A stretch of DNA of 64,000 nucleotides from an uncultured Clostridium sp. (GTDB lineage: Bacteria; Bacillota_I; Bacilli_A; RF39; UBA660). The DNA lies in the NCBI GenBank assembly GCA_902493795.1, contig CABUQZ010000001.1:38697-102696 (forward strand), in the 5' to 3' direction. This document shows positions 2,959 to 49,967 of this stretch, piece after piece (position 1 is the stretch's first letter; every line of letters begins with the position of its first letter). The notes beneath the pieces were generated by a model that was given only the letters and a program-made list of their open reading frames with translations, ran no database searches and was not told where the DNA came from. The position numbers were made by a program, and so were the translations under genes.

Positions 2959-5085
2959 TTACATTTTAACACTATCTTTTAAATAATAATCTACTTTTTT
3001 AGCACCATTAGTAAGATATTCTGAGTTATATATTATTTCTTTAATTAAATTTATATTTTTCTTACTATTTTCAAGTTTCGTTTTTACTATCTGAACCATA
3101 TCTTCATAAGTTAAATCATTAAACATAATCTTTTTTAGATTAATATCTTCATCCATTTCTATTTTGTTATTATTACTTTGAAAACCAATTAATTCTTTAG
3201 ATATTTTATTGGTAATTAAAATAAAAAGTGAATTACTTAAATTATATTTAAATCCATTATAATCCTCGTAATGTCCAGTTTTCAACATTTTAAGAATAAT
3301 ATTTTTAACCTTATAATGACATTTATCAAAATTTTTAAGTATTATTAAATTAATAGGCTTATCTTTAATCATATTTAAAAATACATTATTGGTTTCGTTA
3401 ACTCCAAATTTAGCAAGATCATTAAGTTCACTTAAGTCAAGCTTGATTACATTATTATTAAATAAATATTGTCCTATTCTTTCTGCTAATAATGTTTTAC
3501 CTACCCCAGTCGAACCATAAAACATCAATGTAAGAGGTCTATCATTTTTATAATCACAATTAAAAATATTTTTACAATATGTAATAGTACTATCAATAGC
3601 TTTTGATTGAGCAATAACCTCTTTACTTAATTTCATCTTAATTCTTTTAAGATATCTATCTATATTTTTAGAATTATCAATGTAAACATTACATTTTTCA
3701 CTTATTATTTTATTTATTATATCTTTAGTAACCTTTTTAGGTTTATTATCACTTAACATTTTTATATCATTCAAATTTACTTCTGATTCAATTTCTCTTT
3801 CTTTTTTACGCAAAAGCATAGCTAACTTATAATTTTTTTTACTCAAAAACATATCTTTTTTTCTTTTTATTTCTTCAAGATTGTGTTTTAATTTACTGTT
3901 TTTAATTTGAATAAGAGAAGGCTTAACTGCCGTTTTAGAACAAGCTTCATCAAGTATATCAATTGATCTATCAGGTTCTTTTCTATTTGTTATATATCTA
4001 CGAGATAAGTCCATAATATATTTTAAAAGGTCATTAGTTATGTTAACGTTATGAAAATATTCATAACCTTTTTTTGTACTAACTAAAATGTTATAAAGCA
4101 TTTCTTCATTTGGTTCCTCAATTAATATATTTTGAAATCTTCTTGAAAGAGCTTTATCTTTTTCTATAAACTTTTTATATTCTTCATTTGTAGTAGCACC
4201 TATTATTTTAATATTTCCTCTTGCAAGAGCAGGTTTCAAAATATTACTTGCATCAATTGCACCATCAGCACCACCTGCTCCCACTAAAGTATGTATTTCG
4301 TCAATAAATAATATTATGTTGTTTTTCTCTGCATAGTTTATAACATTTAATAATTTTTCTTCAAACTCTCCCCTATATTTTGTACCAGAAACCATACCTG
4401 CCATTGAAATAGATACAATTTTTTTATTTAAAAGTTTATTAGGTACATCACCAATATTTATTTTTCTTGCTAGTTCTTCAACAATAGCAGTTTTTCCAAC
4501 ACCAGCATCTCCCAAAAGTAAAGGATTACATTTTGTTTTTCTAAGAAGAATTTCTATTATTTTCTCTATTTCCCTATCTCTTCCATATATTTTATTTTCA
4601 AAGTTATCTGAAGAAAGTATAACCCCAACATTTTTTAATATATCTTGATTAGCGTCATAAGAATATGAATCAAAACTTATCATCTCTTTAAGCATATCAA
4701 AATCAACATTGTATTCACAAAAAATTCTATAAGCTACACCCTCTCCTTCATCAAGAAGTAAAGAAAAAAACAGAGGTAAAGTAATTTTATCAAGATTATT
4801 TTTTGTCGAGTATTCAAAAGATTTATCAATTATTTTTTTTAATAATGGAGTATAAACAAATAATGAGTCTTCTTTTTCTCCGATTCCTAAATGCTCAATT
4901 ACTTTATTCTTAAATTCTGTGTATGTAATATTTTGTTGATTTAAAATACTACATATACTATTTTCAAAGCTTAGTATTGCCAGTATTATGTGTTCTGTTC
5001 CTATATAAGAATGTTTTAATGAAAACATTTCATTTTTAGAATAATTTAATACTTTTTTAAGTTCATCACTAAATTCTATAAACAT
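2959..5085 (-). CDS. clpC: Clp/Hsp100-family AAA+ ATPase, ClpC-like, with two N-terminal Clp_N repeats, an intact D1 and a degenerate D2
   Basis: D1 Walker A GDAGVGKTAIVE, Walker B ILFIDEIHTLVGAG, sensor SRRFQ. D2 P-loop GSTGVGKTLLAE but Walker B is degenerate (LIILKNFDKCH); an IGF tripeptide is present. Confidence 0.65.
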   Translation of the reverse strand: MFIEFSDELKKVLNYSKNEMFSLKHSYIGTEHIILAILSFENSICSILNQQNITYTEFKNKVIEHLGIGEKEDSLFVYTPLLKKIIDKSFEYSTKNNLDKITLPLFFSLLLDEGEGVAYRIFCEYNVDFDMLKEMISFDSYSYDANQDILKNVGVILSSDNFENKIYGRDREIEKIIEILLRKTKCNPLLLGDAGVGKTAIVEELARKINIGDVPNKLLNKKIVSISMAGMVSGTKYRGEFEEKLLNVINYAEKNNIILFIDEIHTLVGAGGADGAIDASNILKPALARGNIKIIGATTNEEYKKFIEKDKALSRRFQNILIEEPNEEMLYNILVSTKKGYEYFHNVNITNDLLKYIMDLSRRYITNRKEPDRSIDILDEACSKTAVKPSLIQIKNSKLKHNLEEIKRKKDMFLSKKNYKLAMLLRKKEREIESEVNLNDIKMLSDNKPKKVTKDIINKIISEKCNVYIDNSKNIDRYLKRIKMKLSKEVIAQSKAIDSTITYCKNIFNCDYKNDRPLTLMFYGSTGVGKTLLAERIGQYLFNNNVIKLDLSELNDLAKFGVNETNNVFLNMIKDKPINLIILKNFDKCHYKVKNIILKMLKTGHYEDYNGFKYNLSNSLFILITNKISKELIGFQSNNNKIEMDEDINLKKIMFNDLTYEDMVQIVKTKLENSKKNINLIKEIIYNSEYLTNGAKKVDYYLKDSVKM

Positions 5086-25223: not shown

Positions 25224-25252
25224 TTAAAAAAAAGAAAGCATAACGCTTTCTT
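25224..25252 (-). terminator. Rho-independent terminator after noc
   Basis: gaaagcgttatgctttc followed by a T-run on the minus strand. Confidence 0.6.
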
Positions 25253-25258
25253 CTTGCA

Positions 25259-26617
25259 TTATTTTTGTAAATTAATAGTTATCTTGTAACTAGAGTCACT
25301 ATCTGCTTCTTCAAAGCTAACTTTATATCCTTTACCTTCAAGTGAAGTAATTGCATTTTTTATATCAGCAATTGCAGGAGTTAAATCAGCTTTAGTTGGA
25401 ACAGCAATTCCAACAGATCCAATAGAACTAGCAACATTTACTGGTTCTTTAGCTATATTTGAGTTAAAAAATTGATCAAAATTATTAGTAGTTGGTGGTG
25501 GAGCTAAAGTAGAAGCTGTCGTTGTTTGCAAAGGAGATGTTGTAGTTTGTTCTTTATTTGCTGTTTGATTAAAACCAAACGTTGGAACAAATTTAAATCC
25601 ATCATTTTGTGGCTCAGTTGTATCTTTCATAAGATCTTTTACATCAACTGTTTCTGGTTTTATTCCACCTATATCAACAGAATTTTCTCTTATTTTATTT
25701 ATATCTATTGTTGTAGGATTATTTTGAGTTATAGGAGCACTTGTTTCTTTTACAGGTTCAGTTTCAGGCTCTGTAGATGAAGGTATTCCAAAATTAGCTA
25801 AATTAAATTGAGGTGCTGTTGTAGATTGTTCACTTGGTAACGAACTAACACTACCAATAGCTTGATTTTGAACATTTCCCACTATATCATTAGCTGTTAA
25901 CATATTATTAATTCCTATCTGGTTATTCATAGTAGCACCACCCTCAACTGTTCCACTTGGATTTACATTATCTGTTCCAGGTTTACTATCATTTATTAAC
26001 TTAATTTCTTTATCTAAATCTCTAACAGTCATCTTTTCATCAATGATTCTATTTAACATTTTTATTTGGTCATTTTTATCTTGAAGATTCAATAAGCTTC
26101 TTGCATGACGTTCAGAAATTTTCGTTTTTAACAAAGCATCTTGTACTTCATCTGGAAGAGCAAGCAATCTTAATTTATTAGATACAGAAGACTGTGTTTT
26201 ACCCATCGTTGCAGCAAGTTGCTCTTGAGTCATATTATCCTCAAGTTCTAGTATTTTTTGGTAAGTTCTTGCTTCTTCAATAGGAGTTAAATCCCTTCTT
26301 TGTAAGTTTTCAATTAATGCAACCTTAGAACTTTCTTTATCATCTAAATTTTTTACTATAGCAGGTATTTTAGTAAGTCCTGCCATAGTAGAAGCCTTAT
26401 ATCTACGTTCTCCTGCTATTATCTCATACTTATTATCAACTTTTCTAACAATAATGGGCTGAATAACCCCATGTTCCTTAATTGAAACAGCAAGTTCCTT
26501 TAATGCTTGATCATCAAAAACTTCTCTTGGCTGAAATCTATTAGGAATAATATCATCTAAATATAATGAAACTACTTCACTATTACCATCCATAACTAAC
26601 ACCCTCTTCTTATACAC
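25259..26617 (-). CDS. noc: Nucleoid occlusion protein Noc (ParB paralog) with a long low-complexity C-terminal extension
   Basis: IPNRFQPREVFDD..GVIQPIIVRK..EIIAGERRYKAS..KISERHARSLL matches Noc/ParB. Residues 230-415 are a T/P/Q/N-rich disordered tract, followed by a short C-terminal domain. Confidence 0.75.
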   Translation of the reverse strand: MYKKRVLVMDGNSEVVSLYLDDIIPNRFQPREVFDDQALKELAVSIKEHGVIQPIIVRKVDNKYEIIAGERRYKASTMAGLTKIPAIVKNLDDKESSKVALIENLQRRDLTPIEEARTYQKILELEDNMTQEQLAATMGKTQSSVSNKLRLLALPDEVQDALLKTKISERHARSLLNLQDKNDQIKMLNRIIDEKMTVRDLDKEIKLINDSKPGTDNVNPSGTVEGGATMNNQIGINNMLTANDIVGNVQNQAIGSVSSLPSEQSTTAPQFNLANFGIPSSTEPETEPVKETSAPITQNNPTTIDINKIRENSVDIGGIKPETVDVKDLMKDTTEPQNDGFKFVPTFGFNQTANKEQTTTSPLQTTTASTLAPPPTTNNFDQFFNSNIAKEPVNVASSIGSVGIAVPTKADLTPAIADIKNAITSLEGKGYKVSFEEADSDSSYKITINLQK

Positions 26618-26667: not shown

Positions 26668-26702
26668 AAAAAAGTGTGATTATATTAATCACACTAATTA
26701 AT
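26668..26702 (-). terminator. Rho-independent terminator after the pilin-like gene
   Basis: AGTGTGATTA-ATATA-ATCACACT followed by a T-run on the minus strand. Confidence 0.6.
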
Positions 26703-26707
26703 TTATA

Positions 26708-28030
26708 TTATTTTAATTCTGGAACTGCATTTGTATCAGACGTTTCTACTCTTAAGAATCCATCATATTCTGCTGTTTCTCCAGGAGACAACGTTCTTCT
26801 TGTAGTATCATATTCAGATGGATAAAACGTATACTCATTATTATTTTTTACATACATTAATGGATTATAAGAATAAGCATTTTTAAACTCAGGAGGTGCT
26901 ACTAAAACAAATGACCAGTCTTTAACATCAGTAGAAGAAGTATTAGTAACATAAACATTATAATCTTCTACATAAGAGCTTCCTCCAGCTGTATAATAAC
27001 TTTTTCTTTCTAATCTAACTTTTAATGTAGGAAGTTCAGCATACATATCATTTGAATCTCCAACTACACCACCATGTGATGTTCCTTCATGAGTACCATC
27101 GATAAGTTCAACATATTGAATATTACCATTTTTCAATATAAACTCTTTGTCTTTAGGGAACTTAATTTGGAATCCACTATTGAAATTGCTATGTGATGCA
27201 TTTAAATAGTTCCATGTAGATTGAGATGGATTTCCTATAACTTTTAATTTAGTTCCATTTAATTCAAGCTTTACTAAGCTTTGATCAAATCCAGGATTAT
27301 CTAGAATTGTTCCTTCTGGTACATCAAAAGTTGCATCAAATGACTTAATTGTCGACAAGTTACCAATATTTGTAACATCAATTGCAGCATTATAACAAAC
27401 TTTATAATCACCTTGAATACTACATCTATCTAAACGAACATCTATTTTTAATTTCAAGTCTTTATAAATCCATGTAATGTTATCTGTTGTTGTTGTAGTA
27501 GTAATATTTTGTTCAATTGTTTCTTTAGATGTACAGTTTGCATTATATACGACAACATGTTCTTTCCCCTCGATTGATTGAATCTTAACATCTGATATAG
27601 ATAATCCAGCTTCAATTAAATCGGCATCCAAATCATCGTATTTTGTTAAATCTTTAATTCCTTGTCCTGTTTCATCAACACTTGTCCAATAATAATCATA
27701 TCCATTACCATTGTAAGTAACAACTATATAGGCACTGACGAAATCACCATATGGTGAAACTGGTTTATCTCCGTTTTCAAGGTTAATACAAGAAGATGGA
27801 ATGTAATAAGTAACTGAGGAATCGTATGCTTCTAACTTACCGCTATTAACTAAAACTCTAGCACCGCCAATAACTTGTTTTGCTGTATCGACATATGCAT
27901 TTTTCCTTGAACTAGAGATATATGAAGTAACACTAGGAATTGCAATTATCATCAATATACCCAATATGATAATAACTGCTAATAATTCAATTAAAGTAAA
28001 CCCTTTCTTATTCTTTTTTTTCATTTTCAT
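26708..28030 (-). CDS. Type IV prepilin-like protein (N-terminal methylation motif) with a large C-terminal extension containing two repeated beta-rich modules
   Basis: Class III signal KKGFTLIELLAVIIILGIL. The C-terminal half has two modules of about 90 aa sharing VTN..G...W / GF motifs, reminiscent of carbohydrate-binding or Ig-like domains. Confidence 0.7.
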   Translation of the reverse strand: MKMKKKNKKGFTLIELLAVIIILGILMIIAIPSVTSYISSSRKNAYVDTAKQVIGGARVLVNSGKLEAYDSSVTYYIPSSCINLENGDKPVSPYGDFVSAYIVVTYNGNGYDYYWTSVDETGQGIKDLTKYDDLDADLIEAGLSISDVKIQSIEGKEHVVVYNANCTSKETIEQNITTTTTTDNITWIYKDLKLKIDVRLDRCSIQGDYKVCYNAAIDVTNIGNLSTIKSFDATFDVPEGTILDNPGFDQSLVKLELNGTKLKVIGNPSQSTWNYLNASHSNFNSGFQIKFPKDKEFILKNGNIQYVELIDGTHEGTSHGGVVGDSNDMYAELPTLKVRLERKSYYTAGGSSYVEDYNVYVTNTSSTDVKDWSFVLVAPPEFKNAYSYNPLMYVKNNNEYTFYPSEYDTTRRTLSPGETAEYDGFLRVETSDTNAVPELK

Positions 28031-30716: not shown

Positions 30717-33700
30717 CTATTCCTTTTCTTTAGCGACAGTCAACATTAGTTTTATTCTATTAACTTGATTAGTATGACTTGCTCCTGGATCATAATCAAT
30801 AGCAACAATATTACTATCTGGATAAAGTTTTCTTACCTTTTTAATTACTGCCTTACCTACTATGTGATTAGGAAGACAAGCAAAAGGTTGAACACAAACA
30901 ATATTATTTATACCTTCTTTAATAAGTTCAACCATCTCTCCAGTTAAGAACCATCCTTCACCAGTTTGATTTCCAACAGACAATATTCCTTCAACATTAT
31001 CAGCAAGTTTATAAATATCAACACTTTTTCTAAATCTAGTACCCTCTAACGCTTTATCTATTGGTTTCTCATATAAATGGATAATTTCAAGCATTTTTTT
31101 ACATAAGTAAGAGTAAAATGACCCTGTCTTAAACAATTTATCTTTAATTAAGCTATTATAAGCACAATACTTAACAAATCCCATAAGTTCAGGAGCACAT
31201 ACTTCTACTCCTTCTTTTTCAAGTTTATCAACTAAATGGTCATTTCCAAACGTATGATACTTAATAAGTATTTCACCAACAATTCCAACTTTAGGTAATT
31301 TTTTATCTTCTATTTCAATCTCACTAAATCTTTTAACAATTTTATTTATATTTTTCTTATATTCTTTAAATTTTCCATGATACAATGACTCTTCACACAT
31401 TTTTTCAAGCTCATCATACACTCTATTAGTTTCACCTTTGTTAACTTCATAAGGTCTAGTAGCATAGCTAAGTTTCATTAATAAATCACCATAACTTACT
31501 GCTTGAAGTAATTTATTGATAAGTGAAATATTTAAATGGAACGCTTGATCTTTTTCAAGTCCAGAAAAATTCAAAGACATAACTGAAACTTGAGGAAGCC
31601 CAGCATCTACTAAAGCTTTTCTAATTAGTCCTATATAGTTAGTAGCACGACATCCACCACCAGTTTGGGTTAAAATGACACTAGTATTATTAACATCATA
31701 TTTTCCACTAAGCAAAGTATGTACAAGTTGGCCTATAACTATAATTGCAGGATAACAAGCATCATTATTAACATATTTTAACCCTGTTTCAATCATTTCT
31801 TCAGTTGTTTCTTTTAAATATACAGGTTTATATCCTTGTGATAACAATGTTGCGCCCAACAAAGGCATATGAAATTGCGAAACATCAGGAAATAACAATA
31901 TATGTTTTTTATCGGCTTCACTAAAAGTATTCTTTTGATAACTATATGTTTCATATTCTTTATCATTTTGTCTTTTATTCATAGATGCAATTAAAGATCG
32001 AATTCTAATCTTTGCAGTACCTAAATTATTTACTTCATCTATTTTAATTGTAGTAAATAACTTATTATTAAATCTTAATATTTCTTCAGCTTGATCTGTT
32101 ACTATCGCATCAAGTCCACATCCAAAAGAATTTAAATTAACAAGTTCTAGGTTATCATAGCGACTTACAACATCACACGTATTAAATATTCTAGCATGGT
32201 ATTCCCATTGATTCATTACTCTCATTTTAGATTTAATTTTACTTAGATGACAAATTGAGTCTTCTGATAACACAGCAAGGCCTAAAGAATTTATCATAGT
32301 ATCAATTCCATGATTTACTTCTTTATCCAAATGATATGGACGCCCAGCAAGAACAATTGCCTTCTCATTATGTTTTAAAATATATTCTAAGAATTCTTCA
32401 CCCTTATCTTGAACGTCTTTTTTAAACTTTTCTTGTTCTTTAAACCCTAAAGCAACAGCTTTTTTAACTTCACTCTTTTTAAACTTGTATTTCTTAAATT
32501 CAGGAATTTCTAATAATCTCAAAACAAGTTTTTCTTGTTCAATAGGTAAAAATGGATTTATATAAGTTATATTGTTCTTCTCGATATCTTCAACATTTAA
32601 TTTAATTGCTTCACTATAAGAAGTTACTATTGGACAGTTATAATGGTTATCTGAGTTATCAAATTCACTTCTTTCATACATCAAACAAGGATAAAATATT
32701 GTCTTTACTCCTTTATTTATTAAATTGATAATATGTCCATGTACTAGTTTTGCAGGATAGCAAACTGATTCACTAGGCATTGATTCAATACCGCTTTCAT
32801 ATATTCTTCTATTAGAATGATCTGAAATAACAACTTTAAATCCCAAATTAGTGAATATTGTAAACCATAAAGGATAATCTTCATACATATTAAGTACTCT
32901 TGGAATACCTATTTCTCCACGTGGAGCATCTTCTATTGGTTTATAATCAAATAATCTATCATACTTCCAAGCATACATATTGGGTAATGTTGAACTGCTT
33001 CCATTGTTACCACTACCTCTTTCACACCTGTTACCAGAAATAAACCTTTTCTTATCAAACATATTTATTGTTAATGCACAATGGTTTTCACATCCCTGGC
33101 ATCTTGTGTTTGTTGTCTTAACCTTTTGATTTAATAGTTCTTCTTTAGAAAGCATAGAACTTACTATATCTTTATCGTCATACTTATTAAAGTTATCAAG
33201 AGCAATTAAAGCTACTCCATAAGCCCCCATAAGTCCAGCTATATCAGGTCTAATTACTTCTTTATGCGTAATATTTTCAAAAGCTTTTAAGACAGCATCA
33301 TTTAAGAATGTTCCACCCTGAACAACTATCTTTTCTCCTAGAGTAGTCATATCTCTTATTTTCATAACTTTTTGAATGGCATTACGAATAACAGAATAAG
33401 AAAGCCCAGCAAAAATATCACCTAAAGGTCTTCCCTCTTTTTGAGTTTGTTTTATTTTACTATTCATAAATACTGTACAACGACTACCTAAATCTATTGG
33501 AGACTTACTCTTAACAGCTAAGTCTACAAAATCATTAACTGTCATACCTAAGCTCTTAGCAAGTGTTTCAATAAAAGAACCACATCCACTAGAACAAGCT
33601 TCATTTAACATTATAGAGTTAACTGCACCATCTTTAATTCTGATGTACTTCATATCTTGTCCACCAATATCTATGATACTTTCAACTCCAGGCAAGAAAT

Positions 33701-34961
33701 AATTAGCAGCTTCATAATGAGCCATTGTCTCTATTTCACTAATATCAAGATTAAACGCTGTTTTAATAAGCATTTCACCATAACCAGTTGAACCACTTTG
33801 CCTAATAATAACTTTAGGAGGAAGTTTACTATATAAATCAAGGATCATTTCCTTAGCAGTATCATAAGGAGTACCTTTATTGCTTTGATAATTTTCATAT
33901 AGTAATTCCCCATCACTACTTATCAAAACAACCTTACAAGTTGTACTTCCAGCATCTATTCCTACAAATGCATCTCCAACATAACTATTTAAATCTCTTT
34001 TCTTAATTGAGGACTTTTTATGACGTTTTAAAAACTTTTCATAATCTTTATTATCTTTAAATAATGCTGGTAAATTATTAGATTCCTCTTCTTTAAAAGA
34101 CTCTAGTTTTTCCTGTATTTTTTTAAATTCTTTAATATCAAATACATTTTTCTTTTCTTTATCAAGTATTGCACCAATACACACAAAAACTTTTGTATCG
34201 ATATTAGGGTTAACCACTTCATCATCATTTAAGTTCAAAGTACTAATAAATCTATCTTTTAAACTAGATAAATAAGTAAGAGGTCCTCCCAAAAATATAA
34301 CATTACCCTTTATTGGCTTACCACAAGCAAGTCCACTTATTGTTTGGTTAACAACTGCTTGCATTATAGAAAGAGCTACATCTTCTTTTTTAGCTCCTTC
34401 ATTTAAAAGAGGTTGAACATCTGCTTTTGCAAACACCCCACAACGAGAAGCTATTGGGTAAATTGTTTTACCATTCTTAGCTAAATCATTAAGTCCTTCT
34501 GTTGTTGTATTCAAAAGTACTGCCATTTGATCCAAAAAAGAACCTGTTCCACCAGCACAAGAACCATTCATTCTTTGTTCTATTGTTTGATCAAAATATA
34601 TAATTTTAGCATCTTCCCCACCAAGCTCAATACACACATCAGTTTGAGGAACAAATTCCATAATAGCATTCTTACATGCAATTACTTCTTGAACAAAGTT
34701 AACATCCAAAAACTTAGCAAGTGCAATAGCACCACTACCAGTCATTGTTAATGTATAATTGTAACCTTTAAACTTTTCCATAATTTCAGAAAACAAAGTA
34801 AAAATTGTTTTCTTAGTATCTGAAAAATGTCTTCTATATTCACAAAATAAAATATTATTTTCTTTATCCATTACAACTGCTTTAACAGTAGTTGAACCAA
34901 CATCTAATCCTATATTTACTACTTTCATATAAATTACCACCGATAAAAATAATAGTAACAC
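30717..34961 (-). CDS. Fusion protein: two BadF/BadG/BcrA/BcrD-type ATPase (CoA-substrate-specific enzyme activase) domains, a DUF2229-like Cys-rich segment and a 2-hydroxyacyl-CoA dehydratase D-component (HgdB)-like domain
   Basis: Two acetate/sugar-kinase-fold blocks (NIGLDVGSTTVKAVV and FVGIDAGSTTCKVVL); Cys cluster RCQGCENHCALT..CERGSG; C-terminal HgdB-like region (~520 aa); 1414 aa in total. Confidence 0.65.
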   Translation of the reverse strand: MLLLFLSVVIYMKVVNIGLDVGSTTVKAVVMDKENNILFCEYRRHFSDTKKTIFTLFSEIMEKFKGYNYTLTMTGSGAIALAKFLDVNFVQEVIACKNAIMEFVPQTDVCIELGGEDAKIIYFDQTIEQRMNGSCAGGTGSFLDQMAVLLNTTTEGLNDLAKNGKTIYPIASRCGVFAKADVQPLLNEGAKKEDVALSIMQAVVNQTISGLACGKPIKGNVIFLGGPLTYLSSLKDRFISTLNLNDDEVVNPNIDTKVFVCIGAILDKEKKNVFDIKEFKKIQEKLESFKEEESNNLPALFKDNKDYEKFLKRHKKSSIKKRDLNSYVGDAFVGIDAGSTTCKVVLISSDGELLYENYQSNKGTPYDTAKEMILDLYSKLPPKVIIRQSGSTGYGEMLIKTAFNLDISEIETMAHYEAANYFLPGVESIIDIGGQDMKYIRIKDGAVNSIMLNEACSSGCGSFIETLAKSLGMTVNDFVDLAVKSKSPIDLGSRCTVFMNSKIKQTQKEGRPLGDIFAGLSYSVIRNAIQKVMKIRDMTTLGEKIVVQGGTFLNDAVLKAFENITHKEVIRPDIAGLMGAYGVALIALDNFNKYDDKDIVSSMLSKEELLNQKVKTTNTRCQGCENHCALTINMFDKKRFISGNRCERGSGNNGSSSTLPNMYAWKYDRLFDYKPIEDAPRGEIGIPRVLNMYEDYPLWFTIFTNLGFKVVISDHSNRRIYESGIESMPSESVCYPAKLVHGHIINLINKGVKTIFYPCLMYERSEFDNSDNHYNCPIVTSYSEAIKLNVEDIEKNNITYINPFLPIEQEKLVLRLLEIPEFKKYKFKKSEVKKAVALGFKEQEKFKKDVQDKGEEFLEYILKHNEKAIVLAGRPYHLDKEVNHGIDTMINSLGLAVLSEDSICHLSKIKSKMRVMNQWEYHARIFNTCDVVSRYDNLELVNLNSFGCGLDAIVTDQAEEILRFNNKLFTTIKIDEVNNLGTAKIRIRSLIASMNKRQNDKEYETYSYQKNTFSEADKKHILLFPDVSQFHMPLLGATLLSQGYKPVYLKETTEEMIETGLKYVNNDACYPAIIVIGQLVHTLLSGKYDVNNTSVILTQTGGGCRATNYIGLIRKALVDAGLPQVSVMSLNFSGLEKDQAFHLNISLINKLLQAVSYGDLLMKLSYATRPYEVNKGETNRVYDELEKMCEESLYHGKFKEYKKNINKIVKRFSEIEIEDKKLPKVGIVGEILIKYHTFGNDHLVDKLEKEGVEVCAPELMGFVKYCAYNSLIKDKLFKTGSFYSYLCKKMLEIIHLYEKPIDKALEGTRFRKSVDIYKLADNVEGILSVGNQTGEGWFLTGEMVELIKEGINNIVCVQPFACLPNHIVGKAVIKKVRKLYPDSNIVAIDYDPGASHTNQVNRIKLMLTVAKEKE

Positions 34962-38453: not shown

Positions 38454-38580
38454 AATTCCACCTCCAAACTAAAATCGACATTATTATAATAAGGAAATAA
38501 CAAAATGTCAATTAAAATAATATCATTAAAATAATTATGATGCAACAAAAAAATACAAATTTCCACATTATTCACAACCC

Positions 38581-38743
38581 TGTGTATAAATATACGTAAA
38601 GTTATTCACATAATTAACAAACATGTTGAAAACTTAATAACATCCTGTGATTTAAAATTTGTGGAAAAAGTGGAAAACTCATATTTTACATATAAATAAA
38701 AGGTTTTACCTATGGATAACTTAGTGTATAACTTATGGATAAC
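38581..38743. promoter_or_regulatory. oriC upstream part (incA/B-like): cluster of degenerate DnaA boxes upstream of dnaA
   Basis: TGTGTATAA (38581), TTATTCACA (38602), TGTGGAAAA (38660), TATGGATAA x2 (38711, 38734). Each is one mismatch from TTATCCACA. Confidence 0.6.
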
Positions 38744-38825
38744 TATTTTTTGATTTTTTCTCTTTCTTTTTTTGCACAATTGGTCTACAATATTTGTTGT
38801 ATTTTGACAGGGGGCTTGATAAAGA

Positions 38826-40208
38826 ATGAACAACAATTCTATACTTTGGACAAAGATTCTTGAAAAGATCAAAAGTGAAATCAATTCTTTATCTTTTCAA
38901 ACATGGTTTGAAGAAACCACTTTGTACGATTTTAGTAACGGAGTAGCGAAGATAATTGTTCCTTATGCATTACACAAGGACCACTTAGCAAATAACTACA
39001 AAAAGCTTATAACTTCATGTTTTATTGAAGAAATAGGGGAACCAGTTGAACTTGAATTCCTAATCCAAGAGGAAATAGAAGAGCAAGATGAACTCCTAAA
39101 TGAACCAGAAATAAAGTTAGATTTTAATGACAATATATATAAGGATGTCAAAGATACTAATTTTGAATCACATTTGGATAAAAAATACACATTCGAAAAC
39201 TTTGTAGTAGGAAATACTAACAAATTTGCCCATGCAGCAGCACTTGCAGTAGCAGAAAAACCTGGAACTATGTATAATCCTCTGTTTATATATGGAAATA
39301 GTGGGTTAGGGAAGACCCATTTGATGCATGCAATAGGAAATTACATAGAAAAGAACTCAAATAAAAAAGTTTTATATATAACAAGTGAGACTTTTGTAAA
39401 TGATTTCATTGAAATTACAAGGAAAAAAGAAGAAAAAAGTAATTTTGAAAACATTGATTTCTTTAAGAAAAAATATAGAGATATAGATGTTCTAATTGTT
39501 GATGATATTCAGTTTTTAGCTAAAAAGAATGAATCTCAAAAAGAATTTTTCCATACATTTAACAACTTATATGGTGATGATAAACAAATAATCATATCTT
39601 CAGATAGATCGCCAAATGACTTGAAAATATTTGAGGATAGGTTAAGAACAAGATTCAATTGGGGATTACCAGTTAATATTTATCCACCAGATTTTGACTT
39701 AAAAGTTGCTATATTAAAGAAAAGAATAGCAGCAGAAGCCATGAATACTGATATACCTGATAATGTTATAGAATATATGGCATCAAATATAGGAACAGAC
39801 ATAAGAAGTTTGGAAGCTAGTCTGAATAGATTGTTTGCATATTCAACAATGATGGGAGCAGATATAACACTAGATTTAGCAATAGAAGCCCTAAAAGACT
39901 ATATAAATGCTGGATTTAGTGAAAAAAATGACGTAGGAAAAATCCAAAAATTAGTAGCAGATTACTTTAAAGTATCAATTGATGACCTAAAATCTAAGAA
40001 AAGAAACGCTGATTTAGCATTTCCAAGACAAATTGCTATGTATCTCTGTAGAAAACATACTGATGAATCTTTTCCTAAGATAGGGCTAGAGTTTGGTGGA
40101 AAAGACCATACAACTGTTATGCACTCTTGTTACAAGATAGAAAAAGAGATAAAAAATAACAAAAATTTAGCTGAAGAAATTGATAAACTTGAAAAAGAAT
40201 TACATTAA
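38826..40208 (+). CDS. dnaA: Chromosomal replication initiator DnaA
   Basis: GNSGLGKTHLMHAIGN ... C-terminal DNA-binding domain. Confidence 0.97.
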   Translation: MNNNSILWTKILEKIKSEINSLSFQTWFEETTLYDFSNGVAKIIVPYALHKDHLANNYKKLITSCFIEEIGEPVELEFLIQEEIEEQDELLNEPEIKLDFNDNIYKDVKDTNFESHLDKKYTFENFVVGNTNKFAHAAALAVAEKPGTMYNPLFIYGNSGLGKTHLMHAIGNYIEKNSNKKVLYITSETFVNDFIEITRKKEEKSNFENIDFFKKKYRDIDVLIVDDIQFLAKKNESQKEFFHTFNNLYGDDKQIIISSDRSPNDLKIFEDRLRTRFNWGLPVNIYPPDFDLKVAILKKRIAAEAMNTDIPDNVIEYMASNIGTDIRSLEASLNRLFAYSTMMGADITLDLAIEALKDYINAGFSEKNDVGKIQKLVADYFKVSIDDLKSKKRNADLAFPRQIAMYLCRKHTDESFPKIGLEFGGKDHTTVMHSCYKIEKEIKNNKNLAEEIDKLEKELH

Positions 40209-47763: not shown

Positions 47764-47804
47764 TAATTTAGTTGTAATTTATTAATTAATATAGTAAAAT
47801 TTAA

Positions 47805-47892
47805 TTGATGCAATAAGTACGGCAGAACTAGGTCAGGACAGGAATGTAGCAGCCTTAATGCTTATAAAAATTTGTACTTATGTGCATCATTT
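47805..47892 (+). ncRNA. ffs: Signal recognition particle RNA (small 4.5S-type)
   Basis: Domain IV motif AGGUCAGG-ACA-GGAA-UGU-AGCAGCC closes a GGAA tetraloop. The 5' segment GATGCAATAAGTAC pairs with the 3' segment GTACTTATGTGCATC. A tadA-scr-dnaX neighbourhood is known from Bacillus. Confidence 0.7.
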
Positions 47893-47913
47893 TTTTTGGA
47901 GTTGTGGAAGTAT

Positions 47914-48336
47914 ATGATCAAAGATGATTTATATTATATGAATCAAGCCTATAATGAAGCATTAAAGGCCTATGATAAAAATGAAATTCCAGTAGGAGCT
48001 GTAATTGTATGTAATGGAAAAATTATAGCAAGAGGACATAATTTAAGAGATTCGAGCAATATTGTGACAAAACATGCAGAAATCATAGCAATAGAAAAAG
48101 CAAATAAAAAGAAAAAAAACTGGAGATTAATAGATTGCATTCTATATACTACATTAGAGCCATGTAATATGTGCAAAGAGGTAATAAAAGAAACAAAAAT
48201 AAACAAAGTTATCTACGGAGCAAGTGGTAAAAATCCAAGTAAAGAGGAAAAAATAATTCAAATTAAAGATCAAAATATAATAGCACAGTGTGAGAATATT
48301 ATTTGTAAAATGTTCAAAAATATAAGAGAAAAGTAA
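47914..48336 (+). CDS. tadA: tRNA-specific adenosine deaminase TadA
   Basis: HAEIIAIEKA ... TLEPCNMCKEVI zinc-binding motifs. Start placed at MIKDD to avoid overlapping ffs (the tracked ORF starts at 47872). Confidence 0.85.
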   Translation: MIKDDLYYMNQAYNEALKAYDKNEIPVGAVIVCNGKIIARGHNLRDSSNIVTKHAEIIAIEKANKKKKNWRLIDCILYTTLEPCNMCKEVIKETKINKVIYGASGKNPSKEEKIIQIKDQNIIAQCENIICKMFKNIREK

Positions 48337-48346
48337 TATAAAAAAT

Positions 48347-48372
48347 TGTGGATAAAAGTTTCACGTGAAACG
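48347..48372 (+). promoter_or_regulatory. Composite element 1: DnaA box TGTGGATAA (48347-48355) abutting parS-like AGTTTCACGTGAAACG (14/16)
   Basis: Direct sequence match; 1-nt gap. Confidence 0.7.
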
Positions 48373-48465
48373 AAGTAAAAAAAATCTACGTAATAATTCC
48401 AATAATAGATTATTTATTGGAATTTTTTTTTGAAAATATTTCCTTATTACATTTTTTATTTAAAT

Positions 48466-48850
48466 ATATTATTTCTTGGGAAATATTCTATAAATTATTT
48501 CCCAAAGACCATAGATAGTAAAAATATATTTCCCGAGAAATATTTATATATAATTATTATCTTAATATATTAGTTGTTAAAAAAAATATTTCCTGGGAAA
48601 TATTCGATAAATTATTTCCCAAAAACTATAAATAGTAAAAAATATATTTCCCGGGAAATAATTATATGTAATTATTATCCAATATAATAGTTGTTGAAAA
48701 AAAATTTTTCCCAGGAAATATTCTATAAATTATTTCCCAAAAACTATAAATAGTAAAAAATATATTTCCCGGGAAATAATTATATGTAATTATTATCCAA
48801 TACAATAGTTGTTGAAAAAAAATATTTCCTAGGAATTATATAAATATTTT
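48466..48850. repeat. About 3.2 tandem copies of a 119-bp repeat, each carrying two Noc-binding-site-like palindromes
   Basis: Unit starts at about 48466, 48586, 48704 and 48823. Perfect ATTTCCCGGGAAAT at 48646-48659 and 48764-48777. Variants with 1-3 mismatches: ATTTCTTGGGAAAT (48471), ATTTCCCGAGAAAT (48528), ATTTCCTGGGAAAT (48588), TTTTCCCAGGAAAT (48706), ATTTCCTAGGAATT (48825). Confidence 0.85.
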
Positions 48851-49135
48851 ATATAAAGTATTAATTAAAGAATAGTGATTGCAATTTTATTTTAAGAATA
48901 ATCTTTTTATATTATATAAGATTATTTTTATTTGTGGAAAAAGAAATATATAGTTTTAATAATAAAGAAAATAAACGAAGAAAAAATATTTAATAATAAA
49001 CATATTTTATAAAAAATAAATTTTGTATATGCATCTTGTTGATAAAAGTTATAAGTGGCAAAAGAGAAGAAAATATAAATGAAAAAATGGTAAAACGAAG
49101 AAAAAAAGATTAATTTATTAAATACAAACAGTTTA

Positions 49136-49161
49136 TGTGGATAAATGTTTCACGTGAAACA
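49136..49161 (+). promoter_or_regulatory. Composite element 2: perfect DnaA box TGTGGATAA plus perfect parS TGTTTCACGTGAAACA (49146-49161)
   Basis: 16/16 match to the Bacillus-type parS consensus TGTTNCACGTGAAACA. Confidence 0.85.
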
Positions 49162-49250
49162 TAATAATAATCTGGAAAAAGGAAGTAATAAACAAAATAG
49201 GTGAAAAACAGAACGGAGAATAAGATATTGATGAATAAATTAAGAAATCA

Positions 49251-49275
49251 AAAGGATAAAGTTTCATGTGAAACT
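49251..49275 (+). promoter_or_regulatory. Composite element 3 (degenerate): AAAGGATAA plus AGTTTCATGTGAAACT (13/16)
   Basis: Same architecture as the other units, with mismatches. Confidence 0.45.
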
Positions 49276-49375
49276 ATTGATAGTGGAAAAAGATATTATA
49301 TAGAATAAAAAAGAAAGTAAAACGGAGAAAAAAAGTTTTATATATAACATTTAAGAAAAATAATATGAACATTTT

Positions 49376-49400
49376 TGTGAATAATGTTTCACGTGAAACA
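49376..49400 (+). promoter_or_regulatory. Composite element 4: DnaA box TGTGAATAA plus perfect parS TGTTTCACGTGAAACA (49385-49400)
   Basis: 16/16 parS; the box has one mismatch. Confidence 0.85.
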
Positions 49401-49488
49401 TAAAACTTAGTGGAAAATATAAAAAATATTAATAATTTGATATGATTATAATTGTGACTAAATGCTTTATGTATCAAAATTTCTAGAT

Positions 49489-49513
49489 TGTGGAAAAAGT
49501 TTCACGTGAAACA
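49489..49513 (+). promoter_or_regulatory. Composite element 5: DnaA box TGTGGAAAA plus parS AGTTTCACGTGAAACA (15/16)
   Basis: Direct sequence match. Confidence 0.75.
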
Positions 49514-49585
49514 TTATAAATAAAATGTAGAATATAACTTATAAATAATATTTTAAATAATAATGTAATAAAAACGGTTGTGCTT

Positions 49586-49686
49586 TGTGGATAAAAATTG
49601 TTGATTAAAAAAATAGAAATATATGTAAAGTAAAATAAAAATAGAATATTAAAAAATAATTTTTATATATTTTTTATTGTGGATAA
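49586..49686 (+). promoter_or_regulatory. Two further perfect DnaA boxes (TGTGGATAA at 49586-49594 and 49678-49686) inside an almost pure A/T tract (49600-49900)
   Basis: 9/9 consensus boxes in the same orientation as the composite units; the flanking DNA is over 90% AT. Confidence 0.7.
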
Positions 49687-49930
49687 AATTTAAAAAAACA
49701 AAAAAATATGTGTTTTAACACTTTTTATATCAAGAAAATAACAAAAATGTAATAATAATATTTATATGTATGATTTTGCTTATAAAATATTTTTATAGAT
49801 AAAAAATAATGTTTTTATATAATGTCAATATGTATGCTTAAAAATAAATGTAAAGTATGTAAATATACGTAAAAATAATGATAACTTGTTGATAAAAAAT
49901 ATATTCAAAATGTCTGTAAAATAAAATATT

Positions 49931-49945
49931 TATGGTATAATATAT
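49931..49945 (+). promoter_or_regulatory. Extended -10 promoter element (TGgTATAAT) for dnaX
   Basis: tatggtataat lies 25 nt upstream of the dnaX start. Confidence 0.45.
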
Positions 49946-49967
49946 CTTGAGATTTATAGGGGGACTT

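Follow-up and report, generated by a model that had tools for sequence, protein, structure and literature searches.

The DNA-binding protein Noc contains an N-terminal amphipathic membrane-targeting helix (about residues 1–10) that is highly conserved and required for function (PMC4331003, PMC8429893). Deletion of 10 residues from Noc abolishes both membrane binding and function (PMC4331003), and release of the helix is controlled by cytidine triphosphate (CTP; Jalal et al., PMC8429893). Specificity for Noc-binding sites (NBS) versus parS sites is set by residues Q173, K179, K184, and R201; either of the two lysines is sufficient on its own (PMC7383237). The linker that closes the DNA-entrapping compartment of chromosomal ParB proteins is lysine-rich and, in one description, "invariably ~20 amino acid" long; its significance is unknown (PMC8367383). 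The longest characterized linker that we found is that of KorB, which is 53 amino acids in length (PMC11790492), and our survey of the literature found no description of a Noc that lacks the membrane-targeting helix or contains a long linker. Here, we analyze a noc gene whose product combines both features. The gene lies on the minus strand of a 64,000-nucleotide stretch of DNA (contig CABUQZ010000001.1, positions 38,697–102,696), designated the window, from an uncultured Clostridium sp.

It is highly probable, judging from its position and from alignments, that the gene is the noc ortholog of this lineage and that it encodes an NBS-specific, CTP-switched clamp of the ParB family with the architecture described below. 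The gene is located between rsmG (gidB) and soj-spo0J, 12 kb from dnaA (38826–40208); mnmG-rsmG-noc-soj-spo0J is the classical Bacillus arrangement. A scan of GTDB genomes identified 80 related loci in metagenome-assembled genomes of uncultured gut or rumen organisms named "Bacilli bacterium" or "Tenericutes", Clostridium sp. CAG:417, CAG:710, and Candidatus Onthousia, the last of which is placed by NCBI taxonomy only as Bacilli incertae sedis. The gene order mnmG-rsmG-noc-soj-spo0J-DUF951 is kept in 64 of these 80 loci. A preliminary description of this DNA referred to the protein as a Noc paralog; the gene is instead the only one of the Noc type at the canonical position.

The best matches in the Protein Data Bank (PDB) are the Noc structures 7ng0 and 7nfu (E value of about 1e-63), with Spo0J/ParB proteins following at 7.5e-50 or weaker, and the Noc model TIGR04285 is the top match in NCBIfam. 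The GERR motif (G61-E62-R63-R64) in the ParB N-terminal domain and ENLQR (residues 95–99) just after this domain are invariant across 26 homologs, and PNRFQPR in the same domain is likewise invariant in the clade. In an alignment of the helix-turn-helix (HTH) region with that of B. subtilis Noc (7ol9), GKTQSSVSNKLRLLALP...SERHAR of the window protein is matched with GKGQSTIANKLRLLKLP...TERHAR, and the residues at specificity positions 173, 179, 184, and 201 are Q, K, A, and R, respectively, as compared with Q, K, K, and R in canonical Noc. The window Noc has neither the parS-type residues (R173 and G201) nor the LG[KR]GL[DE]ALF-type peptide found at the N terminus of ParB. Spo0J of the window, a 297-amino acid protein encoded 0.9 kb downstream of noc, carries R, M, N, and S at the specificity positions, as read from its sequence.

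In comparing the N terminus of the window Noc with those of canonical Noc proteins, we noticed a difference. Nine non-redundant Noc proteins from Bacillaceae begin with MKH[SP]FSR[FL]FG[LI]GEKE (MKHxFSRFFGLGEKE); a spacer of about 20 residues comes next. The window Noc begins 12 residues ahead of the motif DDIIPNRFQPR, and 77 of 77 related Noc proteins begin 8–22 residues ahead of the same motif. Residue 6 of the window Noc aligns with residue 27 of Geobacillus thermoleovorans Noc (7nfu), which places its start about 21 residues later than the canonical one. Residue 7 aligns with residue 4 of the NΔ26 construct in 7ng0, and the two proteins are thus nearly co-terminal. As judged from these alignments, the window Noc lacks the membrane-targeting helix α1 as well as helix α2. 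By descent and by most of its defining features, the protein belongs to the Noc lineage, yet it is not a canonical Noc, as it lacks two features that are regarded as defining how Noc and ParB work, a membrane helix at the N terminus and a short, basic linker.

The second departure from canonical Noc lies between the DNA-binding domain and the C terminus. A Pfam scan of the whole protein identified the two expected N-terminal domains and none beyond residue 200. The preliminary description was therefore correct in regarding the N-terminal portion as Noc/ParB-like, although this portion extends for about 202 amino acids rather than the 230 that were proposed. The remainder had been viewed as a C-terminal extension, a flexible tail that ends in a short structured segment and might serve as a tether or an interaction domain. 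A structured segment is indeed predicted at the C terminus: residues 401–444 form a helix and a β-hairpin with AlphaFold predicted local distance difference test (pLDDT) values of 80–89 when the whole protein is modeled and of 89 for the segment on its own. Three comparisons indicate that this segment is an ordinary Noc C-terminal dimerization domain rather than a new module. First, the isolated 46-residue C terminus matches a single NCBIfam model, TIGR04285, at about positions 214–255 of 255 (E value of 0.0027). Second, a comparison by hhalign of the C termini of the clade with a profile of the last 50 residues of canonical Noc (Bacillaceae proteins of 279–298 amino acids plus one 265-amino acid metagenome entry) gave a probability of 97.5% and an E value of 6.1e-12 over 43 columns, end to end. 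Third, the MAFFT alignment of clade and canonical C-terminal domains is gapless, with an invariant glycine, glutamate, and terminal lysine. It follows that the tract is not a C-terminal extension; it represents a much enlarged linker that joins the DNA-binding domain to the C-terminal one.

A Foldseek comparison of the C-terminal domain model with the PDB revealed no meaningful match (best E value of 0.44). The domain is too small for this comparison to be informative and, to our knowledge, no structure of a Noc C-terminal domain has been deposited in the PDB; homology of the domain thus rests on sequence profiles. The full-length AlphaFold model showed pLDDT values below 50 even for residues 1–80, which we attribute to a shallow alignment of low diversity. 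Accordingly, the model was used for the linker and C-terminal domain only.

The linker of the window Noc comprises 198 amino acids, whereas canonical Noc contains about 13–15 basic residues at this position (KRKPKPRRKAFS), a roughly tenfold expansion. The residues S, T, P, Q, N, and G account for 56% of the linker as compared with 27% of the folded parts; the linker is rich in T, N, P, and S and has a net charge of −10. It is the strongest low-complexity tract among the 49 open reading frames (ORFs) of the window (0.60 for its best 100-amino acid stretch; median 0.34), and it is not a tandem repeat. AlphaFold pLDDT values are below 50 over nearly all of residues 205–400, which, together with the biased composition, agrees with the disorder that was originally proposed for this tract.

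Despite its low complexity, the linker contains islands of conservation (Table 1). In a comparison with 25 homologs, mean identity to the window Noc is 0.90 in the N-terminal and DNA-binding domains, 0.57 in the C-terminal domain, and 0.46–0.65 in the four linker islands. Within island B (mean identity 0.62), T294, D297, R302, D307, and I308 are invariant and AlphaFold predicts a weak helix at residues 298–304. F335 and V336 are invariant in island C, and F333 is nearly so. In the near sub-clade, F376, A388, and S389 of islands D and E (identities of 0.46 and 0.60, respectively) are nearly invariant, and a weak helix is predicted at residues 373–377. Across the clade, we recognize five linker motifs: M1 ([KR]F[IV][ND][YF]G, then an acidic run), M2 ([IV]D[IV]xx[IL][RK]xN[AS]xDI), M3 (DLDSLL-like), M4 ([FY][KR]F[FVI]xP), and M5 ([YF]F[KQ]xP[DE]). 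M2, M3, and M4 occur in 38, 40, and 42 of 77 species, respectively, as compared with expectations from shuffled linkers of at most 1 for M2 and M3 and 1.1 for M4. Each of the five motifs is found in 24–42 of the 77 species (≤1.1 expected), and their order is mostly colinear. A search of 1.84 billion representative proteins with a profile of the linker returned 14 matches, all of which are Noc-family proteins or N-terminally truncated fragments thereof. Comparison by eye of the motifs with the ParA-contacting peptide of Spo0J, β-clamp-binding motifs, and FtsZ-tail motifs revealed mismatches in order and key residues. Judging from these patterns of conservation, the linker probably does more than hold the domains apart.

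The conserved aromatic residues raise the possibility that the membrane anchor has been relocated rather than lost. According to this explanation, the linker motifs F[KR]F[FV]xP and FxxFF bind membranes directly and classical DNA-tethering nucleoid occlusion is retained. The aromatic motif is shared by 42 of the 77 species, and some members superficially resemble the canonical SFSRFFGLGEKE (for example, SGSRFFNQNEEKE in locus L011 and NNFKFFNPN in locus L009). Moreover, an amphipathic helix of heterologous origin is tolerated in canonical Noc (PMC4331003). However, a scan of the linker for hydrophobic moment and charge in 11-residue windows revealed no cationic amphipathic segment. The HeliQuest-type discriminant, for which the usual threshold is 0.68, does not exceed 0.50 anywhere in the linker as compared with 1.13 for the membrane-targeting sequence of B. 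subtilis Noc; island C, which contains a proline, scores 0.21. In addition, the net-acidic surroundings of these motifs disfavor binding to anionic membranes. We consider a relocated anchor to be very unlikely.

The long linker is a property of the clade rather than of a single genome. The preliminary description had stated that its interpretation would be refuted if the tract were common to all Noc proteins of the clade, and this is what the homolog search revealed: 77 of 77 complete species-level homologs contain a long linker, and none has reverted to a short one. Noc ranges in length from 332 to 593 amino acids across related genomes. The 59 linkers that we measured are 86–353 amino acids in length (median 221), and their net charge is always negative (−2 to −35). 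Spo0J from 73 of the same genomes is 280–310 amino acids in length, apart from one truncated ORF, and in the six Spo0J proteins that we inspected the linker is normal and rich in lysine, and the N terminus carries the canonical KRRALGKGLEELF motif. Because Spo0J is not expanded in the same genomes, the expansion is specific to Noc and does not reflect a general drift toward low complexity in AT-rich genomes.

Could the unusual length of the protein be an artefact of assembly? The preliminary description placed the ORF at 25259–26617, which we confirmed to be uninterrupted on the minus strand (452 amino acids when read from GTG), and raised the possibility of a frameshift artefact by which noc is joined to an ORF downstream of it. 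Apart from the length itself, nothing speaks for such a fusion. The identical 444-amino acid protein is encoded in the identical gene neighborhood on 15 independent metagenome contigs from different samples, which excludes a frameshift or fusion. Protein searches yielded homologs of 395–521 amino acids, and more than half of the 120 matches listed align over 99–100% of the query. In the 77 species, the reading frame runs uninterrupted through linkers that differ widely in length and in every case ends in-frame with the conserved Noc C-terminal domain. The downstream gene soj, moreover, comes after a terminator-like hairpin. The chance of an artefact is negligible.

Translation almost certainly begins at the ATG at 26593, which yields a product of 444 amino acids; residue numbering throughout refers to this product. 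Gene callers select this ATG on independent contigs, and all Noc homologs open with M[DE]NN.EVV, which matches this start. The alternative GTG at 26617 adds only eight residues (MYKKRVLV), and an in-frame stop is met four codons upstream of it. We considered MYKKRVLV as a miniature membrane anchor and rejected it: similar upstream translations elsewhere (KR[IV].G) represent the ribosome-binding region, and the gene callers use the ATG. Terminator-like hairpins on both sides of the gene suggest that noc is a separate transcription unit. The hairpin that follows the noc stop was not reported by the consensus terminator scan.

Table 1 Positions in the window of noc, the predicted parts of its product, and the NBS array
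Feature	Position	Strand	Details
Noc-lineage coding sequence	25259..26593	-	444 amino acids from ATG 26593; stop codon 25259-25261
Shine-Dalgarno-like GAGGG	26602..26606	-	8 nt upstream of noc ATG; read from sequence
ParB N-terminal CTP-binding domain (residues 7-98)	26300..26575	-	Pfam PF02195, E 1.6e-35
HTH_ParB DNA-binding domain (residues 101-200)	25994..26293	-	Pfam PF17762, E 1.1e-31
Expanded linker (residues 203-400, 198 amino acids)	25394..25987	-	Composition, charge, predicted disorder
Linker island B (residues 291-322)	25628..25723	-	NPTTIDINKIRENSVDIGG...VDVKDLMKD; clade motifs M2 and M3
Linker island C (residues 331-340)	25574..25603	-	GFKFVPTFGF; clade motif M4
Linker islands D (residues 372-381) and E (residues 385-392)	25418..25480	-	NNFDQFFNSN and NVASSIGS; just before C-terminal domain
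Predicted Noc C-terminal dimerization domain (residues 401-444)	25262..25393	-	Helix 405-420; β-hairpin 424-431/436-443
Terminator-like hairpin with U-run	25226..25255	-	Directly after noc stop; 11-bp stem, -11.4 kcal/mol, z -3.0
Terminator-like hairpin	26673..26695	-	Between upstream pilin-like gene and noc; consensus scan, 10-bp stem with T-run
Tandem array of seven NBS-like sites	48471..48837	.	About 59 bp apart; two exact 16-mers TATTTCCCGGGAAATA

Several observations weigh against the assignment of this gene as noc or against a function for its linker sequence. The TIGR04285 score of 287.3 bits falls below the curated cutoff of 315, and the full-length match covers only positions 1–201 of the model, where the long linker interrupts it. 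Public records designate these proteins (including P0019, P0025, and P0040) by the generic name "ParB/RepB/Spo0J family partition protein", which can be traced to the same effect of the linker on the score (287 vs. 315 bits). Specificity position 184 is occupied by alanine rather than lysine. The organisms are uncultured and the support is computational. With regard to the linker, mean identity to 25 homologs outside the islands is only 0.20, and none of the M1–M5 patterns is found in 15 of the 77 species; much of its length may thus be a tolerated spacer. The linker and its motifs match no Pfam family at E values up to 10 and no PDB sequence in a profile search, and AlphaFold assigns the islands only weak helical propensity (pLDDT of about 55).

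These latter observations also fit an explanation in which the linker is a low-complexity tract of the kind typical of AT-rich reduced genomes, expanded neutrally and without a functional sequence. In that case, the protein would be either a Noc of weakened function or simply a clamp that binds NBS, and its linker motifs would be remnants of common ancestry. In line with this explanation, linker length varies fourfold (86–353 amino acids), the sequence outside the islands is 20% identical, 15 of 77 species match no motif pattern, AlphaFold shows no fold, and the N/S/T-rich composition is as expected at a GC content of about 29%. Four findings are difficult to reconcile with it. The motifs occur in the same order across species whose linkers are otherwise dissimilar, whereas ≤1.1 occurrences are expected from shuffled linkers; no species has returned to a short linker; all 59 measured linkers are net acidic, whereas canonical linkers are basic; and Spo0J of the same genomes did not expand. 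We regard purely neutral expansion as unlikely.

Taken as a whole, the locus is probably best explained by an NBS-loaded CTP clamp that lost its anchor and acquired a long, acidic, motif-bearing linker, an explanation that we hold with moderate confidence. Noc would still nucleate at NBS sites and close as a CTP clamp; this function was probably kept, because all of the motifs required for it are invariant. The DNA-entrapping ring would be closed by two flexible acidic arms of about 200 residues each. Conserved motifs in these arms, many of them displayed together from clamps on the NBS array, may then recruit a partner, and such recruitment would replace the direct N-terminal membrane contact of canonical Noc. 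Because the protein has no intrinsic membrane anchor, any recruits would be reached through the linker motifs. The role of the linker in partner recruitment is plausible, although we would stop short of calling it probable.

The candidate loading sites for this clamp lie in the window itself. As the preliminary description had noted, the window contains a tandem NBS array, which we find to consist of seven sites, two of them exact (Table 1). These are the presumed loading sites of the window Noc. The array corresponds to 3.1 copies of a 118-bp unit (91% match). In a shuffling control, none of 100 shuffles reached 12 matches, and outside the array the window contains only matches with three mismatches. 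Among related loci (0.95 Mb), the cognate NBS (ATTTCCCGGGAAAT) occurs as 13 exact 14-mers, as compared with an estimated 0.002 or so by chance. The array is located in a gene-free gap of 1.6 kb (48336–49947) that extends from a tadA-like deaminase gene to dnaX. The gap contains one parS site at 48357, followed by the NBS array and four more parS sites (49146, 49260, 49385, and 49498). Of the five parS sites, all but one have a DnaA-box-like TGTGGATAA 1–2 nucleotides upstream; additional exact DnaA boxes are found at 49586 and 49678.

A scan of metagenomes for paired NBS sites identified 120 loci (median GC content 0.28), some with up to eight NBS within 600 bp. Homologs of gyrA, tadA, or dnaX are present at 66 of these loci and parS at 58, which indicates that the placement of NBS next to parS near the origin is conserved in low-GC gut bacteria. 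Of the 187 parS sites in these loci, 29 have an adjacent DnaA box, as compared with 5 of 2400 random positions.

It is tempting to speculate that the window Noc, deprived of its membrane anchor, no longer functions as a nucleoid occlusion factor and has been repurposed as an organizer of the origin. Positioned on the origin-proximal NBS array beside the cluster of parS sites and DnaA boxes, the protein would connect the origin region, by way of the motifs in its linker, with Soj/Spo0J, with the replication machinery, or with a landmark of the cell pole or of division. All good NBS sites of the window fall within the one array, which is flanked by the five parS sites, four of them abutting the DnaA-box-like element, and the combination of NBS and parS recurs in the metagenome loci. 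On the other hand, the NBS census covers 64 kb of the genome, and sites may be scattered elsewhere; single NBS sites are found upstream of mnmG in at least 10 related loci; the array and a long-linker noc have been shown together on one contig for the window only; and the window Noc lacks the N-terminal peptide through which ParB contacts ParA. This repurposing is unlikely in our estimation. We view with only slightly less doubt the related and more general proposal that, in this lineage of small-genome gut Bacilli, Noc lost its anchor, turned its linker into an acidic scaffold of motifs, and became a second ParB-like hub that organizes the origin. If true, the linker motifs would connect the origin region to proteins of partition, replication, or division. 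The lineage would also represent a natural experiment, indicating that a ParB-family CTP clamp remains workable with a DNA-entrapping ring about 10 times larger than the supposedly invariant "~20 aa" linker would give.

Two further observations concern the distribution of these sites. In most of 12 related species (loci L010, L025, L030, L031, L043, L054, L057, L064, L065, L068, L069, and L078), the region around the mnmG start, about 2.7 kb upstream of noc, contains an exact NBS 14-mer (mostly at locus positions 3150–3350), which looks like a conserved single Noc-binding site near the noc operon. In the window, a 4.2-kb gene is inserted at the equivalent position. Upstream of dnaA, a cluster of DnaA-box-like sequences at 38568–38744, which includes a threefold tandem TATGGATAACT at 38711–38744, is presumably part of oriC.

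The gene neighborhood of noc in the window contains two insertions. Between rsmG and noc, positions 26708–28030 (minus strand) encode a protein of 440 amino acids whose N terminus carries a prepilin-type methylation motif. A homolog is found at the same position in only 1 of 80 related loci, which suggests that the insertion is recent. The other insertion, at 30717–34961 (minus strand), is an ORF of 1414 amino acids that contains BcrAD/BadFG ATPase and DUF2229 (CoA-enzyme activase) domains; it separates mnmE from mnmG, genes that are normally adjacent in the origin-proximal cluster. Elsewhere in the window, the TTG at 47872, which was called mechanically as the start of the deaminase ORF, falls within a bacterial small signal recognition particle (SRP) RNA (47804–47894, plus strand; Rfam RF00169, 44.9 bits). 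The deaminase gene must therefore begin further downstream.

The N-terminal helix of Noc (the "highly conserved N-terminal motif") and the short basic linker of ParB clamps have been treated as conserved in the literature; at least 77 species break both rules together. The same proteins keep the CTP domain, NBS specificity, and the dimerization domain under strong constraint (90% identity in the N-terminal and DNA-binding domains). The clade therefore provides a natural test of the effects of linker length and charge on clamp loading, sliding, and DNA entrapment, and the conserved linker peptides could be used as bait for partners. Our findings also carry a warning for annotation: as a result of the score under the curated cutoff and the generic ParB label, automated surveys would score this lineage as lacking Noc.

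The closest described relatives are the canonical Noc proteins of B. subtilis and G. thermoleovorans (7ol9, 7nfu, 7ng0, and 6y93). These proteins are encoded at the same position (rsmG-noc-soj-spo0J), and their CTP domain shares GERR and ENLQR with the window Noc; residues 7–201 align without large gaps (E value of about 1e-63). Also shared are Q173, K179, R201, a homologous C-terminal domain, and the presence of NBS sites in the genome. Canonical Noc differs in that it contains the membrane-targeting helix and α2, a short basic linker, and lysine at position 184. Chromosomal ParB/Spo0J has the same three-domain organization as a CTP clamp, with a linker that closes the DNA-entrapping compartment (PMC8367383). 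It is distinguished by its own ParA-contacting N-terminal peptide (KRRALGKGLEELF in the window protein), its specificity for parS, and a different C-terminal domain (Pfam ParB_C). KorB of plasmid RK2 is only a distant homolog (E value of 1e-14), and its linker of 53 amino acids compares with 86–353 in Noc of the clade. KorB is a transcriptional repressor that recognizes OB sites, and its partner KorA docks on the folded part of the protein rather than on the linker (PMC11790492). Like the window Noc, however, KorB is a ParB-family CTP clamp with an unusually long flexible linker, and it functions through the docking of a partner (PMC11790492).

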